Assembly (NCBI GenBank): GCA_963706955.1
Contig: CAVPOC010000013.1
Span: 1 to 64,000, forward strand
Length of the DNA: 64,000 nucleotides
Direction: 5' to 3'
Source: an uncultured Verrucomicrobiae bacterium
GTDB lineage: Bacteria; Verrucomicrobiota; Verrucomicrobiia; Chthoniobacterales; Terrimicrobiaceae
In this document: positions 3 through 16,909 of the stretch, piece after piece
How the letters are laid out: every line of letters starts with the position of its first letter
Position numbering within the stretch: the first letter of the stretch is position 1
The notes under the pieces: model-generated
The model's input: the letters and a program-made list of their open reading frames with translations, nothing else
What the model was told of the DNA's origin: nothing
The model's database searches: none
Translations under genes and position numbers: made by a program

Positions 3-470
3 ATCACGGTCGCCTTCGGCTTACCAGTAAACGCCGGCTTTTTGGCGACACTACTCGGCGCAACCTTTAGCGGGATCGGCGGGACACTGGTGGGCCGTTC
101 GCTCGTCCAAAACATGCTTCATCTCATTCCGGGGGCGGGAGTCCTCTTACATGGAATGATTGCGGGAGCAACGGCAGCGATATTTACCACGGCATTTGGC
201 GAAGCACACATTACCGCTCTGACGTGCTTTCTTAAGGCAAATCCCGAAAGGGTGCCGACCGGTTCGGAGATAGCCACAACGCTAAAGGAGGAGTTGCGGC
301 GTCGTGATCCGTTTGCTCCAGTGAATCGCAACAATGCTGTTGCATCCGCTGGCAACTCCTTCCCGGAGAGGTCGCCACGCGGTATGCGTGCGACTGCACG
401 CCGGCAACGGGTCGTCCGCTTTTCTTCAAGCAAGCTGTTGACAAGACTGACCAACGCCTCTTCGAATTAG
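3..470 (+). CDS. DUF697/YcjF-family membrane protein, C-terminal part (5' truncated by window edge)
   Basis: Frame is open from position 3 (ITVAFGLPVNAGFLATLLG...). It has Gly/Ala-rich helices and the motif GRSLVQNMLHLIPGAGVLLHGMIAGATAAIFTTAFGEA, typical of DUF697 C-termini. Confidence 0.65.
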   Translation: MTVAFGLPVNAGFLATLLGATFSGIGGTLVGRSLVQNMLHLIPGAGVLLHGMIAGATAAIFTTAFGEAHITALTCFLKANPERVPTGSEIATTLKEELRRRDPFAPVNRNNAVASAGNSFPERSPRGMRATARRQRVVRFSSSKLLTRLTNASSN

Positions 471-505: not shown

Positions 506-883
506 ATGAGCACAGCTACAAAAACACAGAGCCCGGTCGATCCCAATGCCTTTGCTTCCCTAGGGGATGCTTTGGAATCCGCGGCAGAGAGATTTGAAGA
601 GGGGAAAGCGCACGCGCGGCGTTGACGGGGGAGTGTGCGTCGGGCGGTTCGTGTTGGTGTTTACAATACGGCGTACTGGGTATCATACGGAGTTGTTTAC
701 AGCGCCGTCTTTGTCACCGAACTGCTTCCGGAAGAGAGTGTCTTGCGGCGTGGTCTCGAGGAAGGTGCCGACGCCGCTTTGGATGCACATGGCAAACTAA
801 AGATCGAAGAGGAAGTTGAAGAGGTTCCTGCGCCTGCGCCGGCTAAGCCGCCGCGCAAGCGTTCCTCGAAAGCCGCAAAGTAG
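506..883 (+). CDS. Small hypothetical membrane-associated protein with an in-frame TGA at 623-625
   Basis: ATG506 (MSTATKTQSPVDPNAFASLGDALESAAERFEEG...) is in frame with ORF 635..883 (VYNTAYWVSYGVVYSAVFVTELLP...GLEEGADAA...PAKPPRKRSSKAAK). A single stop interrupts it. Confidence 0.6.
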
Positions 884-911
884 TTGCTAAGAGAGCGCTA
901 ATTGGGTTGGC

Positions 912-3098
912 TTGCCCGATCCTTTCGGGCCGTGGCCATCCAGGCCCTTCGCTGAAATGCAGGGCGGAGTTTCACCGGAATTAGCGGGCGCCTTCAGGTG
1001 CGTTGGATCGAGTTCTCTTCGGACTCGGCGCCGGCGTCCCGCGCCCCTCGCCGATGTGAAGATTCAGGTGGTCGATCGCAACCCTTTGATGATCGTGCTC
1101 GGCGGGGGCGGATTGGCCAACGTTTGCCAAGCGTCCACTCGAAGAGAACTAATCAATCGTCTTTTTGCATTGCGAGAGCTTAGATCTCTGCACTTGGACT
1201 GCAGAAAGGCCCGTCTCCGGCTGCAATTTTCCTCATCGGTATCCTCCGTTTCCGACGAGCTCGCCACGATTGCGGAGGTCATGCGGCAGCGGACAGCGAA
1301 AAGATTATCGTTGCTTCATGACAAGGTGCTCCTCGGAGGAGAATCGCCACCCGAGGTCGAGATCCGTCGGTGGGGTTCCGGTCTTACTTTTTGGAGAGTA
1401 GACAATCCTTCCGCGCGAATCTTTTATTTGAGGCATCCGCTGCTCCGCTTCGAGTTAGTGCGCCGAGCGGTCATGGAAGAATTGGCAACCTATTCTGACG
1501 CGATCCAGCGTGTAATTGCCTTTCGAAAAGCCCTCATGCTTATTGTCCGGCCTTTTCGGATCGAAGCCGAAATGTTTCCGGAAATTCTGGATCCAGTTCT
1601 GACACGCTCGCTGGCGACAGAGGAAACCTCATTCTCTCCGCGGGTCCAGGATGCTCTCGTCGATGCCAACCTAGCGCTCGCGCCGATAGCCGATTTCTTG
1701 TTCCCGTCGGCTGGATTAGCTAATGCCGCCCTGACGGGTGCACTCACGCAGAAGTCCGTTCCTTTGGCATGGAGTCAACTTCGAAGTGGGAAGCTCACGG
1801 TGCATTCCCTAAATGTCCTTATCGCTGGCCTTTCAATTTTCGCCTTTGAATTTTTTGCCTGCGGCCCTGATGTCTCGGCTAACCCGCTTTTGGTCCAAGC
1901 GCACCCGATTGCTGTGTGAGCAACACCAAACACGCTTCCTGGCACGTTATCGACACCGACCGCACCGGGTCTGGCTGGAGGAGAGCGGAGTTTCCCTGGA
2001 GGTCTCCTTGGAGACGCTTTCTCCTTCGAGCGTGATCACGCTGAGAACAGGCGACGTCATCCCTGGTGACGGCGTCGTGGTGGAGGGAGCAGCAGGGGTG
2101 AACGAGAATTTAATCACGGGTCGGGCAGAGGTCTCTCGCAAGAGTGTCGGGAGTTCGGTTTTCGCGGCGACCCGGGTCGCCCAAGGAACAATGCGAATGC
2201 GAGTTCGTTCAACCGGATCTCAAACGGCTGCTGCTCAACTTGCGAGAAACTCCCGCGGAGTGTTTCTTGAGCAAAGCTCGGGCGCGAACACCCTCAGTCG
2301 GATCAAGGCAGATGAAGCCGTTCTGCCGAATATTCTTGCGGCGGTGGTCGCATCATGCACAGGCGGCTTAACGGGATTTCGTTCTGCTCTGCGCCCCGAT
2401 TTTCTCACAGGTCCGGCGATCAGCGAGCAGATGGCGGGCCTCTCGACGGTAATCTACGCGGCTAATCACGGCGTCATTCTTGGGGAACGATCGCCTTTGG
2501 CGCTGTTGCCAGCGGCGGATTATTATTTGTTCGATGAGACAGTTGATTGGCAGGAGGAAAGAGAGGGGCGAGAGGCCTTTCGCCGAGCGACCAAGGATGC
2601 AGGCGACTCGGTGTTCTTCACCTCACTGTCCGGCCAAGAAGCTGCGGATCGCGCGGCTCGGCTCGGATTTCAAGCATTTCATGCCGCCAGTACACGAGAA
2701 GATAAGCTCGATTTTCTCCAGCAGGGAAAATCACGGGGAAAAACGATCGTCTATATTGGACATCCTCATTCGGACGGCCAGCTAGCTACGCAAGCGGCGC
2801 TCCACGTTTCTGTGATCGCGCCACCGTTCAACGATCTCTCGGCAGCCCCAGTGGCCTTGCTATCGCCTGACTTAGGAAAGTTCGCCCTTTGCTCGATCTC
2901 GCGCGAGAGGTCCAGCGAGATTCCGAGACGGCCCTTCGGATAGCTTGGCTTCCGAACATCGCTGCCATTCTTGGCGCGATTTTGTTGCGAAGTCCGGTGA
3001 TGGCATCGGTGCTGTTATCGAACGTGGGCATGTTCGGAAATTATGTTCGGTCGGCGGCAGTCTTGCAGCTCGCTGCCGGGGGCCATCGTCGCTTCTGA
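912..3098 (+). CDS. Degenerate P1B-type ATPase-like protein (pseudo-ATPase 1), frameshifted near 1855 and 2890
   Basis: ORFs 912..1919, 1813..2943 and 2889..3098 join into one P1B-like protein. It has HMA-like N-terminal domains, A-domain GDVIPGDG and ENLITGRA (TGES lost), TM motif PDFLTGP and FDETVD in place of DKTGT. The N domain appears largely absent. The start codon is uncertain. Confidence 0.7.
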
Positions 3099-3117
3099 TC
3101 GATTCCGACCGATCAAA

Positions 3118-5684
3118 TCACTTGCTATCGACGTTTCCGGTCGAGTGAAGAGCCAGCAATGCCGCCGTTCGGTCTTTTGCGGCTTGGGCTTCCGCAACTT
3201 TTTGCAAAGGAAGCAACCCATTTAGCAATGCCACGACCGCGCCGACTTGATTAAAGATCATGGAATGCATCACCCCGAAGCCGGCGAGAAAGGCGCCGAG
3301 GACGCAAGCAGCGTTCGGCATGATGATAATACCCCAGCTCCGATTGATATTTTTCTGCAGGTCGTGGGAGACGTCGCGCAGACGGAGGAGTTTCTCCAAA
3401 CTCTCCTCCATGAAGACGACTTGCGCGGTGTCAGTCGCTATGGTCGAAGCCCCCCGCAGCGAGACTGACACATTCGCCTTTTTGAGAGCGATAGAATCAT
3501 TGATCCCGTCGCCGATGAAGCATACGGTGCGCCCTTCTTTCTGGAGAAGCTCGACGTATTTTGCCTTATCCTGGGGAAGCACCTCTGCGAAGTAGCGATC
3601 CATGCCAAGCTTTTCGGCCAGCTTGCGCGTGGGACGATCGTGGTCCCCGGAAATGATGGCAATGTGCTTTGCTCCACGAGCTCGGAGGCCATGAATAACT
3701 TCCGCAGCTTCGGGGCGATTTGCTGAGCACATCTCGATAGCCCCACCGAGCCTGTCGTTCACGGCGACAAGAATCAACGAGTTGCCCTCGCTGTGAATAC
3801 CTTCCATCTCCTGGTCAAGGCCTTTCGGTATTGGAATGCCCTCATGTCGGATAAAGCGAAGGCTACCGACGCGCACTGTATTGCCCTCGACGCTAACGGT
3901 GATGCCATAACCCACATGGTATTTGGACTCGTCGGTGGTTGGAATATCGAGCCCTCGCTCGACCGCTTTGCTAATGATCGCCTTAGCTATCGGATGGCTG
4001 AACTTGTGCTCTGCAGCCGCGGCCCACTTTAGAATTTGGTCGGAGGAATATTGAGCAAAAGTCAAGATCCGACCAACCTCCGGCTGTTCGCGTGTCAATG
4101 TGCCAGTCTTGTCGAAGAGGAAGGTGTCGACTTTTCGCATGAGCTCGAGAGCACGGCCATCCTTCACGAGAATGCCATGCTGAGCGCAAAGCGTCAGGGA
4201 GGTGAGCATGCCGAGCGGAGCGGCCATACGAATTCCGGTGCCAAGATCGCAATTCACGATGGCGACCGCACTGTCGATGCCGACCGTGCCTAAGCCGAGG
4301 CTGGCGAGTGCGAGTGTTGGGACGACCGCTTTGTCGGCAAGTTCCTCGCCTTGGGATTGCGAGCGCAATTTATAGCCGGCAGTGTCGTTGAGGATACGGG
4401 CGAGCTTGGCCGATGTCGTTTCGCTTCCGGCGCTGGTCACCGCTACCTTGATTTTGCCGGCGAGCATGGTCGTGGCAGCGAATACTCGATCACCTTTGGT
4501 CTTTTCGGCAGGAGCGGACTCTCCGGTGAGCGCATGCTGGTCAATCATCGCCATGCCTTCGACCACCTCACCGTCAACCGGCACGGTCTCTCCGGTGTGG
4601 ACGATGATGACGTCGCCAACCTGCAGCTTTTCGAGAGGCGTTTCAATTTCTATGTCATCCTTGAGAAGCCAGACAAACCGCGGTTGTTTTCCGAAGACAT
4701 TCAGAAGCATCTTCTTTGAATCATCTTCGGTTTTCTTCACCAGCTTGCGGCCAAACCCCAGGCACCATGCAAGCACTGTTCCGGCAAAAACCTGTCCGGT
4801 GACCAGGCAGGTCAGCACAACGATAGAATCAAGGACATCCACCCCGAGCCGCTTTTCTTTGAAAAGCACGCGATGAGCATTTTGGAAGCTTGGAACGACC
4901 GAATACAGGAAGAGGCCTGCGCTGATGGGCAAAATCACCGGTTGGGCGGCGATCGTTCCAACGGCGGCCAGCGCCAACGAAGCGGTGCAGATGGGAAGAT
5001 CAAGATCCACTGAAGAGCGTGTGAGGTCCTCCGCCTTCAGCAGGGCGTCGTCGAGAAGTTCGACCAATTGATGCCGCGGAAGCACGCGTTCATCGTAATA
5101 GACCAGCACCGTAGCGGTGAGATCGCTCGTCTGATAGCGTTCTACTCCGGGAACATTCATCAACTCGCGTTCAATCGACTGGCAAATGCCTCGTTTCCGA
5201 TAAATCGCCTGATTGTGAAATCGGATGCGGTTGCCGGTTTCGTGCCGCACCGACCAACCTGAAATCACTTGGCCGTGCCGATGCAGCCGGACAGTGTTTT
5301 CCCGGATCTCGGGCAGTCTTTCGGGGAAGATGAGCGTGGTGCCATTGTCGGACTCCTCTCGCGCAAGTAGTCGAGAGATTTTCTTAGGGATGTTCGATCC
5401 CGTAGACCCATTGGCACGGTAGGAGATCTTGGCTCGTCGATGATCTCCCTCGATTTCGATTGTTTCGACCTCCGCAAGTTGAAACGCTCGCGTGTAGAAA
5501 GCGTCGCGTAAAACAGATCATGCGGGTCCGAGAAAAGGGTGCGGCTTTGAAAAGAGATCCGTCCACTTTCAAGCTGAACCTGTATGTCGCCATCCTGCGA
5601 CGATTTCCTGCGTCTGGACGACAACGTCTTTGAAGGGCGTCGAGTGCGCGCTGAGGGCGGCTGGAATGCAAGGATCTGGGCCAT
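3118..5684 (-). CDS. Heavy-metal-translocating P1B-type ATPase with intact catalytic motifs; frameshifts near 5490-5520
   Basis: Motifs TGETVPVDG, DQHALTGES, FDKTGTLT, HPIAKA, SGD and GDGIND are present. An HMA_2-like domain (WSVRHETGNRIRF...LMNVPGV...TATVLVYYD) is present. The frame of ORF 3118..5268 stays open upstream to about 5490 and joins ORF 5265..5684. Confidence 0.92.
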
Positions 5685-5693
5685 GGCTGTTGC

Positions 5694-5999
5694 TTAAGCG
5701 TGCTTCTTGCTCCCCCCGCGACGAGTCTTCGGACTCCCCGAGGCTTCCGCTTTGTGGCGAACATTCCTCTTTTCCGCGCGGTAATCCTCCCACGCCTGCT
5801 TCTTTTCAGTAATCACCTCCGCGACTACCACATACGCCTCTGCAAGTTTGTCGCGGCCTATCTCGAGGGTTGATCTTACCTGATCTCTGATCAGCGGCCA
5901 TCGTTCACGGAGCGGTTCTACGAGTGTCTCCTTTGGCGACCAAAGCGGGATATCCTCAGAGGGTTTCCGCTTCGAGCGTGGGCGAAGATTATCAAACAT
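5694..5999 (-). CDS. Hypothetical protein (about 101 aa, basic C-terminus), upstream of and co-oriented with the active ATPase
   Basis: ORF 5694..6017; likely ATG at 5999 (MFDNLRPRSKRK...). Its stop is 10 bp from the ATPase start. Confidence 0.55.
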   Translation of the reverse strand: MFDNLRPRSKRKPSEDIPLWSPKETLVEPLRERWPLIRDQVRSTLEIGRDKLAEAYVVVAEVITEKKQAWEDYRAEKRNVRHKAEASGSPKTRRGGSKKHA

Positions 6000-6025
6000 G
6001 CTGGCAAATGTCGGCAACGATGAGA

Positions 6026-6041
6026 GGCACGATTGGTGCCA
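6026..6041. promoter_or_regulatory. Palindromic GGCAC-N5-GTGCC site; reads as a sigma54 -24/-12-like GG-N10-GC element on both strands
   Basis: + strand AGGCACGATTGGTGC; - strand TGGCACCAATCGTGC. It sits in the divergent spacer between 5999(-) and 6191(+). Confidence 0.4.
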
Positions 6042-6190
6042 ATCTTACTAGCGAATTTACAATCACGACCAATTCAGTCAATATTTCTTCCGGGAGAATG
6101 TCTCTGGCTTGACGCGATCCTGCGGACTTGTAGTTTCGGCGGGGACTGGCCGAGATGGAGGAACGGCGTTATTTCAAAGGGGACTGAACT

Positions 6191-8900
6191 ATGAAACCGA
6201 TTTTCGGGCGTTCTTCGATGTCGTCGCGGTCGCGGACGAGTCAACGCTCCCCGGATCGAGCAAAAAACGCTGAACGCCAAGATCGTCCATCTTCGATCGA
6301 GGAGAAGAGGAAAACGGCGATTAGCCTGAAAACGTTCCGAAACGGAATCGAAATCCGCAATGTCGCTTTCTTTCGTCAGCCTGATACCGCTTGGGGGCGA
6401 GAGTTCTTGGCGCGCGCCTTTGTCGTTCCCGAAGTTGAGGTTATTGAGATAAATCGCCGCAAGGGGACTGGCCGGATTCGCTATCGTCGCCAGGGAAGCG
6501 TCGCCGATATTTGGCGCAGGTTAAAGCAGGCGCTCACAGACGCGTGGTCACCCACATCGGCGCAAAGCTTCAATTCCCCTTATCTTGCGCATCCGACTCC
6601 ATCGGTGATTCGCATCAACCGTGTCGGAGAGGTGCTCTCCACCTGGAAGGTTTGCTCACATCGGCGCAATCGTATTCGGCTGATGCATCCTGCGCTAAAA
6701 CAACGGCGAGAAGTGGCTCATCAGTTGGAGGAAGAACTTACCGCCGTTTTCGGGGTCTCCCGCTTTCGGATCAACAGGTTGACAGCAACCGTCAGCATCG
6801 ATTTCCGTCCCGGAGCTCTCACGGCTGCTCATCTGGTTCGGCATTTGGAGGCCGCGTGGCCGCGACTGCTGTCCGGCGGCCGAGGCGCCACCTTCGGGCG
6901 CGCGGTTTTTTGCGGCGACAGGCATGCTCAGCCTGGCTTTTGCGGCGCAGTTTGCGGTCCCTTCGTTGCTTCCCGTGGCCTTGGTGGCGGTCGCGGCTTA
7001 TGGCTTCCCGAACGTAATTGGAGCCTTGAAACTCATTCGACGCGGCCATGTCGGCCTGCCTGTCCTCTACACAGGCACCCTAACGTTTACCCTGCTGAGT
7101 GGGATGCCGTTTTCTGCGAGCCTGATGGCTATGTTTATGCAGTGGTGGCCACGGTGGGGTTATCAAACCCTAACCGAGGGTCAACGCAGGCTTTTTGCAA
7201 ACCATCGTCAACGGGCGACCTGGGCCCGCCTCGCGACGGGGGGAGATGCCGAGATCACGATCGGTATCGATCGGTTGAAAATCGGCGACATGATCGAAGT
7301 CCAAGAAGGTGAGGTAATCCCGGTAGATGGAGTGATCGTGTCCGGTCTGGCGGCGGTGGACGAAGAGCCTCTCACCGGGCGAGCGGGAGCGTTCGATAAA
7401 GCGCCGGGAGACCCGGTCTTCGCGGCGAGCTACCTCCGAGCGGGGCAAATCCGCCTCCGGGTTACTTCTGCCGGACTCGAGTCTTTAGCGGGACACATCG
7501 GTGAGCAGCTTCCTTACGGACATTTTCGCGGTCTGCCTTCATCGGTGGAGGCCGAGGACGTAGCCAACAGCATGGTTGCACCAGCTCTGGCGGTGGCGGG
7601 AATGAACCTCTTGTTAACGGGTGAAGTCCTGCCATCACAGTCTACATTGCGTCCGGACTATGCAACGAGTCCGCGCCTTGGGGCACAACTGGCGACCCTC
7701 GAAAGTTTGGGCGATGGGTTGCGTCGCGGCGTGCTTTTTCGTGATCCCGCTGCTCTCGATCGACTGCCGGCAACGGATATCTACATTTTTGACGATTCGG
7801 CTGCCTTAGAACGGCGCCGCATTTCCGTTGGAGAGATCCTTACGGTTGATCACTCTTCTCCTGAGCTGGTGCTGAGTTACGCGGCCTCAGCTTTTCCATC
7901 ATTTCAAAACGAACGTGCCCGGTCCCTGCTGGAGCGTTGCTTGCTTCGCGGCGTGCCTTTGCAGGAGATTACCGACCGCCGTCGCGAAGCGGGGATGATT
8001 AGCTATCGCGATAGTAAGGGCGACTTGATTCAAGTTGTGGCTCCTGCGTGGATTTCCGCGCATCGAATCCCTGTGCCGCGCTCGCTGATCGCTGCGGTAG
8101 AAAAGTCACCGACCGCGTGGTTCGACCCAACCAAGCTCGTGCCCCACAGTGAGCCCCAATTGCGTCCCCTCTGGATCCTCCGAAATAACAAGATTCTGGG
8201 CGTGATTACCCTCCAGCGCCAAGGAGAACTGGAAGCGGCCGAAGTCCTTGGAACGTTGCGAGCTCGAAACCCCAACGCTCGTTTTCTCCTGATTTCGCGG
8301 CATACCCAGGCGAAGACCAACGCTCTCGCTTCCGAAATCGGCATTTCCACTGCCTATGGTAATCTTAGCGCATCAGCTAAGGCCCAAATCATTCGGGAGT
8401 TTGGCGGGCGCTCGATGTGGATTGGAGATGGAGCGGCTCTCGACGCGGCCGCGAGCATAGAGGCCAGCTTCGTGAGTGTCTCCGGTCGGAGGCGCGGCGA
8501 CGATAACTTCGGATCGAGCCGACGTGTCTCGTTGCAGCCAAGCCTACGAGCCCTCGTGCCGGTGCGGCGTCTCGGTCGCCGCCATCGTAAGCTCCTCAAG
8601 AATGGCTATCGTGCTATCTTTGCGACCAACCTGTTCTGTTTGGCGGGAGCTTTCTTAGGAGAATTCACCACGCTGACCGTGGCGCTAGTCTCCAACTTCG
8701 GAACTGGAGCTGTTTTCGCGACCCATCACCGGCAGATCAATGGTCTTGCAGGTCGTATCGAACGAAAACTGGGGCCCTATCTCTCGATGGAGGCAGAGGA
8801 TGAGGAAGCCGATGAGGCGGCAGGCAATGAATTAGAGAGTGTCGAGGAATACCCTGAACACCATCACGACAGCGAGCCGGACCGCGAAATCCCTGTCTAG
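6191..8900 (+). CDS. Degenerate P1B-type ATPase-like protein (pseudo-ATPase 2), frameshift near 6880
   Basis: ORFs 6191..7312 and 6924..8900 join. It has two HMA-like domains (LSTWKVCSHRRNRIRLMHPAL...VFGVSRFRINRLTATVSIDF), GEVIPVDG, DEEPLTGRA, PDYATSP, FDDSAALE instead of DKTGTLT, WIGDG and an acidic/His tail. Confidence 0.78.
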
Positions 8901-8921: not shown

Positions 8922-10381
8922 TTACGGACGTTTGGATACTCTATCAAACCGCCGATGGATTTCGTCGACGGAATGCTTCAGGCCATGGATCTTCTTGGGA
9001 GATCGCATCTTCTGAACCAGCAGCCAAATCACCCCAATGAACATATACGCGGCGAATAACCAAAGAATGAGCGGTGCGGACCGCTCGGCTCCGGGAAGAG
9101 GATGCTGCCGGGGATTCCGATCATTCCGGCAATGGGGAGAAGAAGGAAGGCAATGGCCAGCGCTGAAATCCAGATATCCACTTTGCGAAGTTGGCCGACT
9201 CCCCGCCGGTAGAGCGGTGCGGCGATAGAGACCAGAAGATAAACCGTCAGAAATCCAAAACTCGCCAGCGTCCCGAAATAGCCTTGCGCAGCGAAAGGAT
9301 CAATGGACGAGAGAGTCAGCACGAGAGGAAAGACCAGGGTGACCCCGGCCGAGATGATTATCGCGATGTGCGGTGTTTGATTCCTCTTGTGGGAGTCGCC
9401 CAAAGCATCGTGCAGAATCCCATGGTGGGCCATGGAGAAAAAGATCCGCGCGGTTGAGTTGATGCAGGCAAGGGTGCAGGCAAAGAAGCTCAGGAGCGTG
9501 CCAAGGTTGATCAGCCATCCCAGAGCTGTCAATCCGCTGCGCGCGGCGAGGAAATTCAAGGGAGCCTCGCTCTCGCCGAGATCGACGCCGCTGTTGCGGA
9601 ACCCCAGGACAAGCACGTAGGCCATGAAGATGAAGAACACGCCAGCCAGGACGACGCTCTGGATCAGAGAGCGGGGGATGGTTCGCAACGGATCTTTGGC
9701 CTCGTCGCCAAGCGACGTCGAGCTTTCAAACCCTGAAAAGCCAAACATGACTAAAACCACCCCCATGAGAATCCCCCCAGGGCTAGCGCCCTCCAGAGTC
9801 AACTGATCGTGGTCAATCGTCAGGCCGCTCTGCCAGCAAATGACAACCGCCAGCGCGAGAATCGCCATGATTGAGACGCCTTCCAGGTATAAAATCATCT
9901 TTGCAGAAAGACGAACGTCCCTGTAGGCGACCAGGGTCGCGCCTAGGATGCCGATAATGGCCAGTGCTGTCGCCGGTAAGTCAAGGCCGAGAGGTTTCAG
10001 GAGAATTCCGCTGAAAATTGCAAAGCCGCACAGCGTGGACATCCCCGTTGCCATGTAGCCGAGAAGAAGGCTCCATCCGCTCAAGACGCCGGCGGCTGGC
10101 CCTGAGCCCTTCACAATATAGGTAAAGAGCGATCCCGGCGACGCCGATCGTCGCGCAAATTGATTGATGTTTAAGCTAACAAAAATTAAGCCGACGATCC
10201 CTAAAAGGAAACTCACCCAAATCCCGTTGCCGGCCTTCGCGAATATGAGACCCATCACCGCCGCCGGAACCGTCGAAGGCGCAATCACTGAAATCGACTG
10301 AGCGAGCACTTCCGAATACGACAGGCAATGTTTACGGAGAGACCGATTGACAAAAATGGGTGGCGGCAGCGTCGCAGACAT
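8922..10381 (-). CDS. APC-family amino acid permease (frameshift near C-terminus, about 9080)
   Basis: Motifs LAQSISVIAP, SPGSLFTY and FSGFESSTSLGDEAKDP, with about 12 TM segments. The last TM and tail continue in a shifted frame to TAA at 8922. Confidence 0.9.
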
Positions 10382-10589
10382 CACTAGGCCACCCATCCGA
10401 TTTGCGGTTCCCCCGGAGCTCGACTGCCCCAATGAAAAACCTTGGCATTCCGCCATTGCCCCGCCATTCTGACCATATAACGACCATGCTGGTCGTATTT
10501 CAAAACCGGTGCAAGCCCTCATTTCCTTTTTCTCCCTGTTTATTATCCTGTGGTCGAGTATGACGCGGCGAGAGTCTTGATCAGGGGGA

Positions 10590-11157
10590 ATGCCTATGAA
10601 GAGCAGTTACGAGACAATCATCCGTTCGCCGATGGAGAAGGTCTTTTTGACCGTGGCGGACCTGGCGCGGTGGCCTGAGTTTCTTCCTCACTACCGGTAT
10701 AATCGCTTCATCAGGCAAACTGCTTCGAGCGGGCTGGTTGAGATGTCTTGTTATCGACTAGGGCTTTCCGCTGAAGTGGGTTTCCGAGTATCGGATCGAT
10801 CTCCCGGGACGTAAGTTGACATTTCGACATCTCGAGGGCGCCTTGAACGCGACGCAAGGGTTGGATATCGTGTGGAACTTCGAAGAGCTGGCAGAAAACT
10901 CTGTGCGCGTGCGACTGACTTATGAATTCACGCCGCGGGTGGTTATTGGTGGGCGATTGCTTGCCGCGTTGGTGCTTGGCGAGCTTTTCGTTCACAATCT
11001 CGCGGAGAAGACACTGGCCGGTTTGAAACGGAAAATGGAGGTCCGGCTGACGCCGGCGGCGGCAGTCTCCTTGCCGCCGGCGAAGCAAGCGTCTGCTCTT
11101 GTGCGGGGCAGGCGAATTCGGCGCCGTATTTCTTCTCATCCACGTGTCTCGGTATAG
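10590..11157 (+). CDS. SRPBCC/polyketide cyclase-dehydrase family protein, frameshifted near 10770
   Basis: IIRSPMEKVFLTVADLARWPEFLPHYR (START-fold signature) continues into ORF 10816..11157 (FRHLEG...IVWNFEE...LAEKTLAGLKRKME). Confidence 0.75.
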
Positions 11158-12034
11158 AATATCCTCTTTACCCTCCCGCAAATCGTTTGCTGCCAATGGC
11201 GGGCCGATTTGCGATCGGGCGGATTACGTAGCGAGGGCTCATCGGGAAATTGCGCGTTGGGAGCGTTCCCGGCGCGGAGCACTTGGCAAACTGACGGACT
11301 TCGTGCTGGGGCCCGCTGGAGCGTTTACTGAGCGCATGGTGCCGCCTTGGCTGAAAACATCCGCGGCCGTGATGATCGAGACGAGTCTGCGTTTGGCCAC
11401 CTATGCCAGTGCCTTGAGCGTGGACGAGCAAGCGGTCGCCCGTGAACAGAACCGATTGCTCCGCCGGAAAAAAGGGATCGCGGAATCGCTCCGCCTTTGT
11501 GATGACTTGGCGAAGAAGCATTGGGTAAACCATTGCAAATACGCGGCCGCAGAAGGTGCCGCTGCGGGGTTGGGAGGGATTATAGGTTTTTTTGCGGACG
11601 TCCCGCTGGTTATCTCACTGGCCATCCGCGAAGTTCGTCTGATCGGACTCTGCTTTGGATATCACGTTAATACTCCCGCTGAAGTTGATTACATTCTCCA
11701 TGTGCTCCGCATAAGCTCATCGGTTGATCCTAAGAGTAAGGCGTCTTCCCTGGAGGCTCTTAAAAGGATCGAAGCCCATCAACGCGGGCAAGCAGCTGGG
11801 CGTCGAAAGCAAAGCTTGGCTAGCGAGCAGTTACGGGTCCGGTATTTGGTTTCTCTTGAGGAGTATTCGCGATCGTTGTCGCTGCGGCTCATCCGGCGCG
11901 GAGTCCTCCATTTTGTGCCCTTTGCCGCAGCGATTACCGGGGCTTCGTTCAATGCGGCGTATGCGCACGATGTCGGCCGGGCAGCCTACATGTCTTATCG
12001 CCGAAGATTCCTCGCCGATCGCTCGACGGGTTAA
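11099..12034 (+). CDS. EcsC family protein (start uncertain)
   Basis: Motifs AAAEGAAAGLGGIIGFFADVPLVI...IGLCFGY and C-terminal FVPFAAAITGASFNAAYAHDVGRAAYMSYRRRFL match the EcsC pattern. Confidence 0.85.
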   Translation: MCGAGEFGAVFLLIHVSRYRISSLPSRKSFAANGGPICDRADYVARAHREIARWERSRRGALGKLTDFVLGPAGAFTERMVPPWLKTSAAVMIETSLRLATYASALSVDEQAVAREQNRLLRRKKGIAESLRLCDDLAKKHWVNHCKYAAAEGAAAGLGGIIGFFADVPLVISLAIREVRLIGLCFGYHVNTPAEVDYILHVLRISSSVDPKSKASSLEALKRIEAHQRGQAAGRRKQSLASEQLRVRYLVSLEEYSRSLSLRLIRRGVLHFVPFAAAITGASFNAAYAHDVGRAAYMSYRRRFLADRSTG

Positions 12035-12457: not shown

Positions 12458-13039
12458 GTGCTAAGCTTTCTCTTCGCGCGTTGGGCGGGCTTGGTGGCAG
12501 CTGGGCAGCTTTTTGTCGTCTGCGGTGTGCTTCTCGGCAGTCTGACATACCAGTTCGCGCTGGGCGAGCTTCCGTGTCCGCTGTGCGTCATTCAGCGCCT
12601 GGCGTTCTTGCTGGCATGCGTGGGACCGATCGGAGTCTTGCTGCGATCGGCCGAGGGTCGAAGTGATTGGATGCGGCAGGCTCGCGGATTCGGCATGACC
12701 ATTTTAGCAGCACTGGTTGGTTCTGCGGCCTCGATCAGGCAGATCTTGTTGCACATTGTTCCGCCTGATCTCGGCTATGGTCCGCCGGTCCTTGGCTTGC
12801 ACCTCTATTCCTGGGCACTGGTCGTCTTCGGCTGCCTGATTGCTTCGAGTGCGATTGGTCTTTGCGGGCTACAAAACGAACAAGTCTCGCTCCCACGGCT
12901 CCCCGTCTACCTTCTGTGCAGTCTTACTCTCGTCATCGGGCTGACGGTCGCGTTTGCGACTTTCTTAATGCAAGGCTTCAATGCCCTGTTGCCGCCCGAT
13001 CCGACGCGGTATGAGCTTTGGCATACATTTTTTCGGTAA
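12458..13039 (+). CDS. dsbB: Disulfide bond formation protein B (DsbB/DsbI-like)
   Basis: ELPCPLCVIQR redox motif, RQILLHIVPPDLGYGPPVLGLHLYSWA, multiple TMs. Confidence 0.85.
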   Translation: MLSFLFARWAGLVAAGQLFVVCGVLLGSLTYQFALGELPCPLCVIQRLAFLLACVGPIGVLLRSAEGRSDWMRQARGFGMTILAALVGSAASIRQILLHIVPPDLGYGPPVLGLHLYSWALVVFGCLIASSAIGLCGLQNEQVSLPRLPVYLLCSLTLVIGLTVAFATFLMQGFNALLPPDPTRYELWHTFFR

Positions 13040-13084
13040 TGCCGAAACAGCCGATCCAACCGCAGAACGGCTGGGCGTTGGTGT

Positions 13085-13125
13085 TATAGCGGCTGTGTCC
13101 GCACGGCCGAGAGCTTCCCGGCGGT
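13085..13125. repeat. Degenerate REP-like palindrome related to the element at 33690
   Basis: tatagcggctgtgtccgcacggccgagagcttcccggcggt aligns with tgtagcgaccgtgtcctcacggtcgaggtttccggcggt at 33690. Confidence 0.55.
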
Positions 13126-13174
13126 CGCGTCATCTCTCAAGACGATAAACTCTATTCGTAAGCTTTTACGAGTG

Positions 13175-14401
13175 TCATGAGCTGCTTGCTCCGGTCAGCC
13201 CGAAGGCCTCATGGGCGAGGTTGGCGGCTTCGACGAGTCGAGCCTCTTCGATGATCACGGCGATCTTGATTTCCGAAGTCGAAATCATCTGGATATTAAC
13301 CCCGGCATTTCCGAGGGCCTCAAAAAGCCGCGCGGCCACCCCTGAGTGTGAGCGCATACCGATGCCGACAACGCTTAGCTTAGCAATGCCATCCGGTTTG
13401 ACGATGAGGCCGGCGCCGATGTCCCTGATGATGGGATCAAGGACGTGACCAACCTTTTCGAGTTCGTCGCGGCTCAAGGTGAACGAGATGTCGGTCGCTC
13501 CGCTGACGGAGACATTTTGCACGATCACGTCGATAATGACATTGGCATCGGCGAGCGCGGTGAAAATGCGTGAAGCGATTCCTGGCCGGTCGGGCACGTT
13601 GCTAATGGTGACCTTGGCTTGGTTGCGTTCCACCGAGACGCCGCGCACAACGACGTTTTCCAATCCGGGTGTTTCTTCTCTCACTAGGGTTCCTCTATTC
13701 GTGTTAAAGCTGCTGCGGACCTCAAAGGGGACCTTGAATTTCTTGGCGAACTCGACGGAGCGCGACTGCATGACTTTGGAGCCGGAAGCGGCCATCTCGA
13801 GGAGTTCATCGTAAGTGATTACGTCGATCTTCCTGGCGGAAGGAACGATCCGAGGATCGCAGGAGTAAACGCCGTCTACGTCGGTGTAAATCTCGCAGTG
13901 GTCGGCCTTGAGAGCGGCCGCGATGGCAATAGCGGTGAGATCACTGCCGCCGCGACCGAGCGTAGTGATTTGTCCTTGAAGGGTCTGTCCTTGAAATCCT
14001 GCGACGATGCAGATGAATCCATCCGCCAAATATCTACGGATCTGGCGGGGAGAAATATTGGCAATTTTCGCCTTGGTGTGGAGCCCGTCGGTCAGGATGC
14101 CGGCCTGGGCACCCGTAAGCGATACGGCCTTTCCGCCCATCGCGTTGAGAGTCATTGCCGTCAGGGCAATGGTTGTTTGTTCACCCGTCGCCAGGAGGAC
14201 GTCCAGCTCGCGTTCGGCAGGAAAGGGTGCCAGTTGCCGGGCGAGTTTGATCAGATTGTCGGTGACCCCTGACATCGCGGAGACCACTACCACGACCGAG
14301 TTCCCCGCTTGTTGAGTTTCGAGCACACGTCGAGCGACGTTCTGAATGCGGTCGGTAGTCCCGACTGAGGTTCCGCCGTATTTCTGAACAACGAGAGGCA
14401 T
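13175..14401 (-). CDS. lysC: Aspartate kinase
   Basis: VVQKYGGTSV, TTLGRGGSD, YTDVDGVY, two C-terminal ACT domains. Confidence 0.97.
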   Translation of the reverse strand: MPLVVQKYGGTSVGTTDRIQNVARRVLETQQAGNSVVVVVSAMSGVTDNLIKLARQLAPFPAERELDVLLATGEQTTIALTAMTLNAMGGKAVSLTGAQAGILTDGLHTKAKIANISPRQIRRYLADGFICIVAGFQGQTLQGQITTLGRGGSDLTAIAIAAALKADHCEIYTDVDGVYSCDPRIVPSARKIDVITYDELLEMAASGSKVMQSRSVEFAKKFKVPFEVRSSFNTNRGTLVREETPGLENVVVRGVSVERNQAKVTISNVPDRPGIASRIFTALADANVIIDVIVQNVSVSGATDISFTLSRDELEKVGHVLDPIIRDIGAGLIVKPDGIAKLSVVGIGMRSHSGVAARLFEALGNAGVNIQMISTSEIKIAVIIEEARLVEAANLAHEAFGLTGASSS

Positions 14402-14434
14402 GGTAGAGATTTTTGCTGCGACTGGCGATTTCAG

Positions 14435-15532
14435 TCAGGCGTTTTCGAGCAGGTGCCGGATGGAGACGAGATCGGGCTCAGCCTCTATCGGTCGGTAGTC
14501 GTCGGTGGTCATCGCGGTGTCGGGATCTTTGAGACCATGGCCGGTAACGGTCAGCACGATCCGGCGCGCGCCTGTTTTCCCGAGTTGGAACAGCCCGGCG
14601 ACGGAAGCCGCGCTGGCTGGCTCCACGAAGATTCCTTCGCTCTTCGCAAGCCAGCTCTGTGCGGCCAGAATGTCCCGGTCGGTAACGATGCCAATAGCGC
14701 CGTGACTCTCTTGGAGGGCGGAGGTTGCGTTTTGCCAGCTGGCGGGATTGCCAATCCGAATCGCTGTCGCCACCGTGTTGGGTGATTCGATGATTCGATT
14801 GTGAAAAATGGGAGCGGATCCAGAGGCTTGGAAGCCCATCATTCGGGGCAGCTTCGTTGCTCTGCCTTGCGCGAAAAACTCACCATAGCCTTTCCAGTAA
14901 GCGGTGATGTTGCCGGCGTTGCCGACGGGAAGAACATGGAGATCGGGCGCGTCCCCAAGTTCCTCAATAATCTCAAAGGCGGCCGTTTTTTGACCTTCGA
15001 TCCGGTCCGGATTGATAGAGTTGACGATGGCAATTCCCTCGAGTCCGCCGAGTTCACGGACGAGTCTCAAGGCATCGTCAAAGCTACCGCGCAGAGCGAT
15101 CACTCGTGCTCCGTAAAGGTAGGCTTGCACAAGCTTGCCGCTGGCGATCCTGCCCGCTGGGAGCAGGACCGCGCAAAGGATGCCGGCGCGGGCGGCATAA
15201 GCCGCTGCGGCCGCAGAGGTATTGCCGGTCGAGGCGCAAATAGCGGTACGCGCGCCGCGTTCCAGCGCCTTCGAGACGGCCACGGTCATCCCGCGGTCCT
15301 TGAAAGACCCGGTTGGATTCAGGCCCTCGTATTTAACAAACACCTCGGCCTCGGCGCGTTCGCTCAGACGCGGAGAATGGATGAGCGGTGTCGAACCTTC
15401 GTTCAAGGAGATAATCGGTGTTGTCTCCGATATCGGAAGGTACTGCCGAAAGCGATTTATGACCCCACGATCGTGGAGGGGTGGCGTAAGCTCCTCGCAA
15501 CGGTTTCGCGCGACTGTAGATTCGGGAGCCAT
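14435..15532 (-). CDS. thrC: Threonine synthase
   Basis: EGLNPTGSFKDRG (PLP Lys), CASTGNTS, PVGNAGN, TGHGLKDP. Confidence 0.96.
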   Translation of the reverse strand: MAPESTVARNRCEELTPPLHDRGVINRFRQYLPISETTPIISLNEGSTPLIHSPRLSERAEAEVFVKYEGLNPTGSFKDRGMTVAVSKALERGARTAICASTGNTSAAAAAYAARAGILCAVLLPAGRIASGKLVQAYLYGARVIALRGSFDDALRLVRELGGLEGIAIVNSINPDRIEGQKTAAFEIIEELGDAPDLHVLPVGNAGNITAYWKGYGEFFAQGRATKLPRMMGFQASGSAPIFHNRIIESPNTVATAIRIGNPASWQNATSALQESHGAIGIVTDRDILAAQSWLAKSEGIFVEPASAASVAGLFQLGKTGARRIVLTVTGHGLKDPDTAMTTDDYRPIEAEPDLVSIRHLLENA

Positions 15533-15610
15533 CGTTTTAGGGCTGAAAGGAAGCCGCCTTGGGCAATGATAGCAATAGGGGCGCCGGTTTCATTTTCTCA
15601 TCAAGCAGGC

Positions 15611-16909
15611 TCAGGGAAAGGATTCCACGTGCAGAAGTGCCGGGGGAGCCTTAACACAATCGAGCGCGGAGATCCGGGCCACGGCGGCTACCATTGCGCC
15701 GAAGAGTGCATCATGGATCATCAAGACGAGCACTGCCGTGCCCGCCGAGTGTGTTTCCGGCTGAATGACCGATAGAATTCCAATTTCTGCCTGCCCGAGC
15801 GCCCCGGCAATCTGCGCAAGGACACCAGGCCGGTCATCCACGGTCAACCGCAGATAATATTTGGAGAGTGAATCTTCGACTGGTTGACATTTGCCATACA
15901 AGTCATGCGAGGTGAAGCCGTAACAAAACCTCGGACTGGTCAGGCCGATCGAAGCCTCTGCCAGATCACTCAGGACCGAGCTCGATGTCGGATCCTGGCC
16001 GGCGCCGCGTCCGTAGAAAAGCGTCTCCCCGACGATGTCGCCACGCACGGCGATGGCGTTGTAGACGCCGTTGACCGAGGCCAGGACGTGGCTTTTTGGG
16101 ATCAGCGTCGGGCAGACTCGCACCTCGATCGCATTGCCCACCCCGGCCTTGATCGTCGCCAGCAACTTGATTCGGTAGTCTAATTCATCGGCGAATCGGA
16201 TATCTGAGGCCGTCACCTTGTCGATGCCGGATACGAAAATCTTCGAGGGATCGAGCCAGAAGCCATAAGCGAGCGAGGCCAAAATGATCGCCTTGTGAGC
16301 AGCGTCCCAACCGTTGATATCCAGTGTCGGGTCCGCCTCCGCGTAACCGAACTGCTGCGCCTCGGCGAGCGCAGGCGCGAAGTCCATGCCAGTGTCGGTC
16401 ATCCTGGTGAGGATGTAGTTACTGGTTCCATTGAGGATGCCGTGGATGCTCTCAAATCGATTGCTGGCGAACGATTCGCGCACCACTTTGATGATCGGAA
16501 TGCCTCCGGCCACCGCCGCCTCGTAGAAAACAGGAACCTTTCGCTCTCGCGCAAGGTGGAAGATCTCCTGACCGTGTTCCGCCAGCAGAGCCTTGTTTCC
16601 TGTCACCACCGTCTTGCCTGCGTTGATCGCCTTCTTGACGAATCCGAGCGGCGTCTCGATTCCTCCCATCAATTCGACAACGATGCGAATATTGGGATCT
16701 GAGATCAAATCGTCGGCGTTTGTCGTAAAGAGCTCGACCGGAGCGGAAACCACACGCTCCTTCTGCAAGTCGCGAACGGCGATGCGGATGACTTCGAAGC
16801 GCGTCCCGAGGCGCTGCGAAAGCAGGTTGCCGTTGGCGGCGAGGTTCTTGTAAACCCCAGCGCCAACGGTGCCAAAGCCTGCCAGGCCGATGCCAATGGG
16901 TTGACTCAT
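15611..16909 (-). CDS. hom: Homoserine dehydrogenase
   Basis: GFGTVG, EAAVAGGIP, GILNGTSNYIL, GYAEADP, C-terminal ACT domain. Confidence 0.97.
   Translation of the reverse strand: MSQPIGIGLAGFGTVGAGVYKNLAANGNLLSQRLGTRFEVIRIAVRDLQKERVVSAPVELFTTNADDLISDPNIRIVVELMGGIETPLGFVKKAINAGKTVVTGNKALLAEHGQEIFHLARERKVPVFYEAAVAGGIPIIKVVRESFASNRFESIHGILNGTSNYILTRMTDTGMDFAPALAEAQQFGYAEADPTLDINGWDAAHKAIILASLAYGFWLDPSKIFVSGIDKVTASDIRFADELDYRIKLLATIKAGVGNAIEVRVCPTLIPKSHVLASVNGVYNAIAVRGDIVGETLFYGRGAGQDPTSSSVLSDLAEASIGLTSPRFCYGFTSHDLYGKCQPVEDSLSKYYLRLTVDDRPGVLAQIAGALGQAEIGILSVIQPETHSAGTAVLVLMIHDALFGAMVAAVARISALDCVKAPPALLHVESFP

Follow-up and report, generated by a model that had tools for sequence, protein, structure and literature searches.

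P1B-type ATPases are treated as single-subunit pumps, and copies that lack DKTGT are usually dismissed or mis-annotated. P-type motors can work with a separate membrane subunit, as in KdpFABC, where that subunit, KdpA, is channel-derived. Here we describe a gene cluster at the start of contig CAVPOC010000013.1 (C13) of an uncultured Verrucomicrobiae bacterium (assembly GCA_963706955.1; 4.2 Mb, 92.5% complete), in which an active P1B-type ATPase lies between two paralogs without its catalytic motifs, so that the candidate partner, unlike KdpA, is a dead copy of the pump itself. The window is the whole stretch analysed, the first 64,000 nucleotides of this contig, and the genes of interest are listed in Table 1. 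The dead copies are a real, conserved and apparently undescribed P1B ATPase family, which has diversified together with a pump related to FezB. No description of the family was found in the literature; ferrosome and CoBaHMA supplements and some subscription papers, which lie outside our scope, may mention it.

In ferrosome (fez) clusters, the preprint text defines FezB by the motifs D[Y/F]SCA and HNxxT and says of FezH no more than that it is a second pump whose sites are distinct (Grant and Komeili, bioRxiv 10.1101/2020.01.10.902569). The cluster described here resembles fez clusters, as outlined there, in its non-CPC P1B pump, R-rich N-terminal domain, small proteins that carry GxxxG in part of the loci, and the occasional second P1B gene. 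It differs in that the pump carries N[CS][DE]xGTGIR and N[NQ] motifs and two tandem HMA-like domains, in the presence of a dead P1B partner, and in having no recurring iron genes. At the FezB M4 position the pump has NCDLGTG and the dead copies RPD(Y/F)xTxP; at M6 the pump has FNQVG, and the dead copies have (S/T)NxGT, which keeps N and T but not H. A control fez cluster from the same phylum (L182:4446-12736, genome G157) encodes a DYSCA pump, GxxxG proteins and, by eye, a FeoA-like gene; its second pump, for which the FezH label rests on position, has DKTGT, CPC and HxxHT and is unlike all three window genes. A preliminary description of this DNA, made from the sequence alone, had proposed a system related to the ferrosome but distinct from it, and the absence of both FezB motifs together with the phylogeny below agrees with this. 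By the defining motifs the pump is not a FezB; it belongs to a sister lineage of the ferrosome P1B-6 pumps, with a gene content like that of ferrosome and PacL membrane platforms.

The mycobacterial PacL-Ctp effluxosomes are likewise described as combining several P1B-type proteins, N-terminal domains without CxxC, small Ala/Glu-rich proteins and a proposed clustering in the membrane, but the Ctp proteins are presented as active exporters with CPC or APC motifs, and the accessible text of these papers mentions no inactive pump (PMC9374683, PMC13460109). Unlike the PacL proteins, members of the two small-protein families of our cluster (506 and 5694) have no Pfam match to DUF1490 or DUF6110 at E 0.1, and six taxon names from the Planctomycetes-Verrucomicrobia-Chlamydiae group gave no match in the PMC9374683 supplements. 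In Microcystis, the calcium-carbonate marker ccyA is reported to be flanked by cax, DUF5132 and CoBaHMA-DUF454 genes, PF19991 being the CoBaHMA domain (PMC8890360; bioRxiv 10.1101/2024.07.07.602159). PF19991/CoBaHMA domains, cax, DUF5132-like small proteins and HMA-like-DUF454 fusions also recur in our loci; here, unlike in the calcyanin system, the core is a P1B pair, and a simple, non-rigorous pattern scan of the loci found no triple glycine-zipper (calcyanin) protein. For a P-type fold that lacks TGES and GDGxND, the nearest precedent, as far as its published account goes, is ERMA (TMEM94), which keeps the Asp and is linked to Mg2+, the D427N substitution being reported to stop Mg2+ uptake; unlike the dead copies, ERMA is eukaryotic, is not a P1B protein, and is not described in that account as paired with an active paralog (PMC13322241). 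The accessible text of a P-type ATPase review does not use the word 'inactive', nor 'pseudo' outside a species name, and a sequence search of the PDB returned ordinary P-type ATPases only.

The three P1B genes of the window share one architecture, as the preliminary description noted, and motif mapping places the motifs where it had read them. Only the pump has the full catalytic set (TGES 4527, NCDLGTG 4254, DKTGT 4113, HP 3996, SGD 3651, GDGIND 3513); it scores 415 bits against the NCBIfam heavy-metal P-type model TIGR01525 (cut-off 346) and is 73% identical to an intact 888-aa ortholog. Both dead copies score far lower, their main frames matching the actuator family only. The type-B dead copy has the full domain set, with TGRA at 7374, RPDYATSP at 7650, FDDSAAL at 7788, NERAR in place of HP at 7908, SRH replacing TGD, and GDGAALD. 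The type-A copy, whose start is uncertain (912-998), consists of two HMA-like domains, a membrane part, an A domain and a P domain with FDE, with TGRA at 2116, RPDFLTGP at 2392 and FDETVD at 2530, and differs from the type-B copy in lacking the entire nucleotide-binding N domain. The motif PD(F/Y)xTxP common to the two copies proves to be a marker of the whole dead clade, as RPD(Y/F)xTxP. The shared replacement of TGES by TGRA is real but partly a matter of chance, only the T and G being conserved among 15 type-A proteins, and the loss of KTGT, also real, needs the correction that the phospho-acceptor Asp is retained. The actual losses are KTGT, the Glu of TGES, the His of HP and the last Asp of GDGxND.

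The N-terminal domains are of CoBaHMA type. The second HMA-like domain matches PF19991 at 45.9 bits in the intact pump ortholog and at 30.9 bits in the window's type-B copy; against Pfam HMA_2 it scores 28.9 bits in the window's pump (cut-off 30) and 30.9 bits in the type-B copy, with no HMA_2 match in the type-A gene. The first domain is homologous to the second by HHalign (pumps 96.6%, E 6.5e-10; type B 86%). A basic N-terminal motif reads RIRF in the pump and RIRL or RVRL in type B, and such R-rich motifs are not specific to FezB. CxxC was not found in the HMA-like domains of cluster proteins, nor was CPC, SPC or APC found in the cluster P1B proteins.

The type-B dead gene has at least 74 further close homologs among the 120 matches listed, most of 800-1040 aa, and an unfiltered search, cut at E 1e-30, returned 186 representatives; a profile built from more distant members gathered 248 proteins, the named ones from Isosphaeraceae. 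The closest cluster relatives are in records named Verrucomicrobiae and Chthoniobacterales. Annotations met on dead copies include 'cation transport ATPase', 'HAD family hydrolase' and 'hypothetical protein'. With proteins shorter than 680 aa dropped, the dead clade comprises 311 distinct proteins (117 type B, 15 type A and 179 type C). DKTG and the HP His are absent from all 311, the TGES Glu is kept in three, and the last Asp of GDGxND in 48, while all 78 DKTGT-bearing relatives retain each of these residues, one gap excepted. The phospho-Asp is present in 117/117 type-B, 15/15 type-A and 115/179 type-C proteins and occupies one of the 32 columns that are invariant when diverse type-B proteins are aligned; the motif-III Lys is kept in 112, 14 and 60 of them, respectively, and the motif-II Ser/Thr is also retained.

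The dead copies form one clade on both a 118-row FastTree tree (support 1.0) and a 31-row IQ-TREE quick tree (LG+C20; 100*), nested within a group shared with the DxGTG pumps (100*) and sister to the DYSCA pumps. Their exact position is less sure because of long branches, and a single origin is independently supported by the shared RPD(Y/F)xTxP motif and by a clade-specific Trp (309 of 311 proteins). Ratios of nonsynonymous to synonymous substitution rates (dN/dS) between close pairs are 0.08-0.14 for type B (n=10) and 0.11-0.17 for type A (n=6), with 0.36-0.41 in three other pairs; the pumps of the loci that gave the close type-B pairs show 0.09-0.11. Distant pairs give 0.4-0.6, values that, like those for the window's own genes, are unreliable because synonymous sites are saturated. 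The proposal of a conserved non-catalytic subfamily is upheld by the intact orthologs, the low dN/dS and the uniform absence of DKTG, and the dead paralogs are almost certainly functional genes.

All three P1B genes carry breaks in this assembly, and both dead copies could be read as decaying pseudogenes: there are about seven lesions in 8.4 kb, above the lower-bound rate for the genome, and two of them, the TGA at 623 in the 506 gene and the break near 5515 at the pump N-terminus, lie outside the listed contig pieces of near-identical strains. However, the indels at 1009, 1851, 2888, 6878 and 8525 are absent from short-read contigs of such strains (four soil or rhizosphere runs from three studies, mostly 95-99% alike, some positions being covered by one contig at low depth). 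Elsewhere in the genome (G000), 28 of 111 comparable genes contain frame changes, 37 in all or at least 0.21 per kb, so breaks in a single gene are weak evidence for a pseudogene here. The breaks are mostly assembly errors. With hundreds of intact orthologs and dN/dS far below 1, decay is already refuted for the family, and it is an extremely improbable account of the two copies in the window.

We collected 80 loci via the dead gene, including many near-identical strains, the metagenome loci being found using the M4 motif. Among the 26 loci of at least 15 kb, a DKTGT pump is present in 25, the 506 gene in 25 and the 5694 gene in 18; among the 44 of at least 10 kb, the pump is present in 37 and the 506 gene in 39. 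Synteny of the dead gene with the active pump and the 506 gene is supported. We also sampled 401 genomes of the order, scoring two candidates in each: the pump occurs in 13, the dead paralog in 13 and both in 12. The two exceptions sit on contigs of 6.4 and 2.2 kb, and every well-assembled genome of the sample that has a dead copy also has a pump. In some clusters a stop/start codon overlap joins pump and dead copy (L053), or pump, a CorA-like gene and dead copy.

There are three pump types, NCDLGTG, NSE[M/C/L/V]GTG and NSDFGTG, each with its own dead type, and the pairs span Verrucomicrobiota, Planctomycetota and a Methylobacterium plasmid. The 42 two-kind loci comprise 25 with pump and dead copy both of type B, eight of type C, two of type A, two with both pairs, one with pump A and both dead types, and four triads. 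The preliminary description took the three P1B genes as the unit; triads do exist (these four and the window), but the conserved unit is the pair, the triad being a derived arrangement. In the window, pair B is accompanied by an orphan type-A copy. No type-A pump occurs elsewhere in its genome, and the type-A copy tree implies at least three separate losses of the type-A pump with the dead copy kept, which together suggest that the orphan may now work with pump B.

The cluster is patchily distributed and occurs once on a mobilisable plasmid. An ortholog of the type-B copy was not found in 18 genomes of the same genus, nor the cluster in 71 genomes of the family, and none of 400 genomes sampled from the phylum exceeded 240 bits, compared with 901 for the window (again with two candidates scored per genome). 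Plasmid searches with the type-C and type-A dead copies missed the family, and the plasmid copy was found via the pump.

Loss of the cytoplasmic domains is graded. Types B and C retain all domains with substituted motifs, and in type A the N domain is absent in 15/15 proteins, the Asp running directly into the remaining P domain. The copy on plasmid pMRAD05 of Methylobacterium radiotolerans (L181:33665-35509 in NC_010518.1; WP_012340195.1), annotated as 'hypothetical protein' and without a Pfam match, lacks both N and A domains but retains both HMA-like domains, RPDF, the Asp and the M5 Asn. Family searches probably overlook further copies that lack these two domains. A P-type cycle is impossible for a protein without nucleotide-binding and actuator domains. 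The dead paralogs as a whole very probably run no ATP-driven cycle.

By contrast with these losses, the two basic HMA-like domains, the core of the P domain and the membrane site are kept, the last with the M4 Asp in 310/311 dead-clade proteins, the aromatic Tyr in 306/311, the M5 Asn in 301/311 and the M6 Asn in 290/311. The site (M4 Asp and Tyr, M5 Asn, M6 Asn-x-x-Thr) matches the DY and NxxT positions of FezB, with the FezB Cys and His not present; the pump keeps Asp/Glu, Thr, Asn and Asn. The dead-copy motif D-Y...N...N-x-x-T is closer to that of FezB than is the pump's own. We also note a related pump clade (P0207, P0220, P0225 and P0229-P0267) that has DKTGT without a conserved M4 or M6 motif, the reverse of the dead copies, and one member of the type-C pump clade (P0217) whose loss of DKTGT was separate and more recent.

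We favour a reading, which we regard as evenly balanced between right and wrong, in which the dead paralogs partner the pump as non-catalytic subunits, the resulting membrane complex being likely to move or store a hard divalent cation such as Ca2+ or Mg2+. The pump would supply the ATP cycle, and the dead copy would be a structural and regulatory subunit of a hetero-oligomer, packing against the pump by way of its HMA-like domains and membrane part, and either stabilising the assembly or tuning it by means of an ion bound at the retained membrane site; the small 506 and 5694 proteins are predicted to organise or hold the complex. Binding of the dead paralogs to the pump is more likely than not. 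Oxygen and nitrogen ligands favour Ca2+, Mg2+, Mn2+ or Fe2+ over soft metals. Ca2+ or Mg2+ is a tentative substrate assignment, falling a little short of an even chance, and is proposed because the ligands are oxygen and nitrogen only and because of the neighbouring genes (Ca2+/H+ exchanger, truncated CorA, sulfate uptake), which speak more for these ions than for iron. Formation of an inclusion or organelle seems doubtful. A fuller version, in which the DxGTG motor hydrolyses ATP, the RPDY subunit, with its retained FezB-like membrane site, carries or gates the ion, and the two together with the small proteins build an undescribed compartment for Ca2+/Mg2+ minerals or storage in Verrucomicrobiota, Planctomycetota and some Alphaproteobacteria, is unlikely in its entirety.

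Several observations weigh against this reading. The dead copies may still carry out some chemistry, since the phospho-Asp, motif-II Ser/Thr and motif-III Lys are kept. Two pump loci (L121 and L123) have no adjacent dead copy, their genomes holding one elsewhere, and in type-B clusters divergent transcription of pump and dead copy is common, as in the window. Pump and dead-copy trees match (r 0.88-0.97), as is equally expected from plain co-inheritance of the cluster, and the sampling is biased by the near-identical strains and by the use of the M4 motif. Genes suggestive of Ca or Mg lie in a minority of loci, with none in the window's part of the cluster, and CDF (four loci) and TerC (three loci) genes also recur.

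Alternatively, the dead copies may act alone as non-canonical ion conduits or sensors, the kept Asp, Ser and Lys binding phosphate or Mg2+ and the membrane site passing or sensing ions with no pump as partner. ERMA/TMEM94, which in its published account keeps the Asp without TGES and GDGVND (PMC13322241), provides the parallel, and both the invariance of the phospho-Asp in types A and B and the nearness of the dead-copy membrane motif to FezB's fit such a role. It is nonetheless unlikely, in that type C keeps the Asp and Lys weakly, some copies have dispensed with the N domain or with both the N and A domains, and dead copies consistently occur with a pump in the well-assembled genomes of the sample.

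The sister relationship to DYSCA pumps, the R-rich HMA-like domains and the GxxxG small proteins, as in published fez clusters, could also point to a variant ferrosome, the pump loading Fe2+ into membrane vesicles built by the dead copies and small proteins. Without DYSCA, HNxxT, or a Cys or His at those positions, and with no FeoA/FeoB, Fur or ferritin-like genes among the neighbour families recurring in at least three loci (where the control fez cluster has its FeoA-like gene), we consider this quite unlikely. The patchy spread and the plasmid copy would suit an accessory resistance trait, and an effluxosome-like platform for detoxification of Mn, Zn, Co or Cd, in which the dead copies would be scaffolds, would be in keeping with the CDF, TerC and Cad genes near some loci and with the PacL-like (DUF6110) proteins said to accompany P1B-6 pumps (PMC9374683, in its accessible text), the planctomycete 5694 protein scoring 0.87 to DUF6110 at the level of a lead only. 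Such a platform is very unlikely, given that CPC, SPC, APC and CxxC motifs are all missing and that there is no metal-sensing regulator among the recurring neighbours.

The dead P1B proteins are an ancient family with one origin that has stayed next to its pump across three diversifications and in several phyla. The family offers a bacterial model for how a P-type fold functions without an ATP cycle, a live question for ERMA, and would widen the ferrosome/PacL/CoBaHMA group of platforms toward Ca2+/Mg2+. The system is directly testable because a compact version of six genes is present on pMRAD05 in a cultured strain, Methylobacterium radiotolerans JCM 2831, whose operon includes WP_012340169.1, WP_012340196.1 and WP_012340195.1.

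Table 1. Genes at the left end of the window, with positions in the window and strand.
Feature	Position	Strand	Remarks
DUF697 GTPase gene, C-terminal end	3..470	+	Cut by contig start; weak Pfam DUF697
506 family core small protein gene	506..883	+	No Pfam family; in-frame TGA at 623
Type-A dead P1B paralog	958..3098	+	~710 aa when intact; breaks near 1851, 2888
Type-B active P1B-type ATPase (pump)	3118..5684	-	TIGR01525; one break near 5505-5525
5694 family small protein	5694..5999	-	Most likely start ATG 5999
Type-B dead P1B paralog	6191..8900	+	~900 aa when intact; break near 6878; short shifted stretch near 8525
Amino-acid permease (APC family)	8937..10522	-	Recurrent type-B cluster neighbour; break near 9070
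SRPBCC/polyketide-cyclase-like protein	10590..11157	+	Split in assembly; recurrent neighbour, 11 loci
EcsC-family protein	11099..12034	+	Pfam EcsC 121 bits; occasional neighbour

The small genes reported as interleaved with the P1B genes are present, with the qualifications of the internal TGA in 506 and the likely ATG start of 5694. Members of the 506 family (1321 homologs among 8000 candidates) have an Ala/Glu-rich helix, a YxxxYGxSYG segment and a charged tail; most have a GxxxG segment, in which the window's protein has W for the first G. The 5694 family has an N-terminal GxxxG segment in planctomycete-type loci, absent from the window's member, is fused to the pump N-terminus in four loci, and resembles DUF6110/DUF5132 (Atlas 0.86-0.87) as a lead only. 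The divergent gap at 5988-6085 contains several weak promoter-scan sites, which are not evidence of function, and an Rfam scan of the window found two tRNAs only.

The cluster extends left beyond the window: the truncated product of 3..470 is 59% identical to a GTPase of locus L011 (PF01926+PF05128), and the DUF697 GTPase gene belongs to the cluster in close relatives. Its right edge is marked at 12458-16909 by genes named by eye as a DsbB-like ORF, aspartokinase, threonine synthase and homoserine dehydrogenase. Across the 80 loci, neighbouring genes that recur encode ExoD (39), an amino-acid permease (29), a sulfate-binding protein or SulP (28), a 104-aa protein (24), a Ca2+/H+ exchanger (8) and the GTPase (5). 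The 104-aa protein is soluble and of no known family, and is found in all three cluster types (e.g. L011:18519-18833; plasmid L181:33330-33668); it was not found in the window's genome, having perhaps been lost beyond the contig end, and the idea that it is an HMA-like domain standing on its own failed in HHalign (under 4%).

A CorA-like gene is found in nine loci plus the plasmid, and many type-A clusters have the order exoD, 506, pump, CorA-like gene and dead copy. It is wedged between type-A pump and dead copy at L165:7566-8414 and L167:11181-12029, in L169, L170, L102-L104, L166 and L168, and on the plasmid (L181:35509-36405). The encoded protein stops after one membrane helix, before the GMN motif (eight loci checked, plus the plasmid), and is a second conserved 'incomplete' transporter in the system. 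A beta carbonic anhydrase gene directly follows the type-A dead copy in two related genomes (L166:4815-5513 and L167:14335-15051). Planctomycete-type clusters also include tandem HMA-like domains fused to DUF454 (L108:6038-7171, L110:2219-3238 and L111:2587-3603) and paired small PGP-containing membrane proteins, and a 506-family protein (P0442) is encoded by the cultured Beijerinckia indica.

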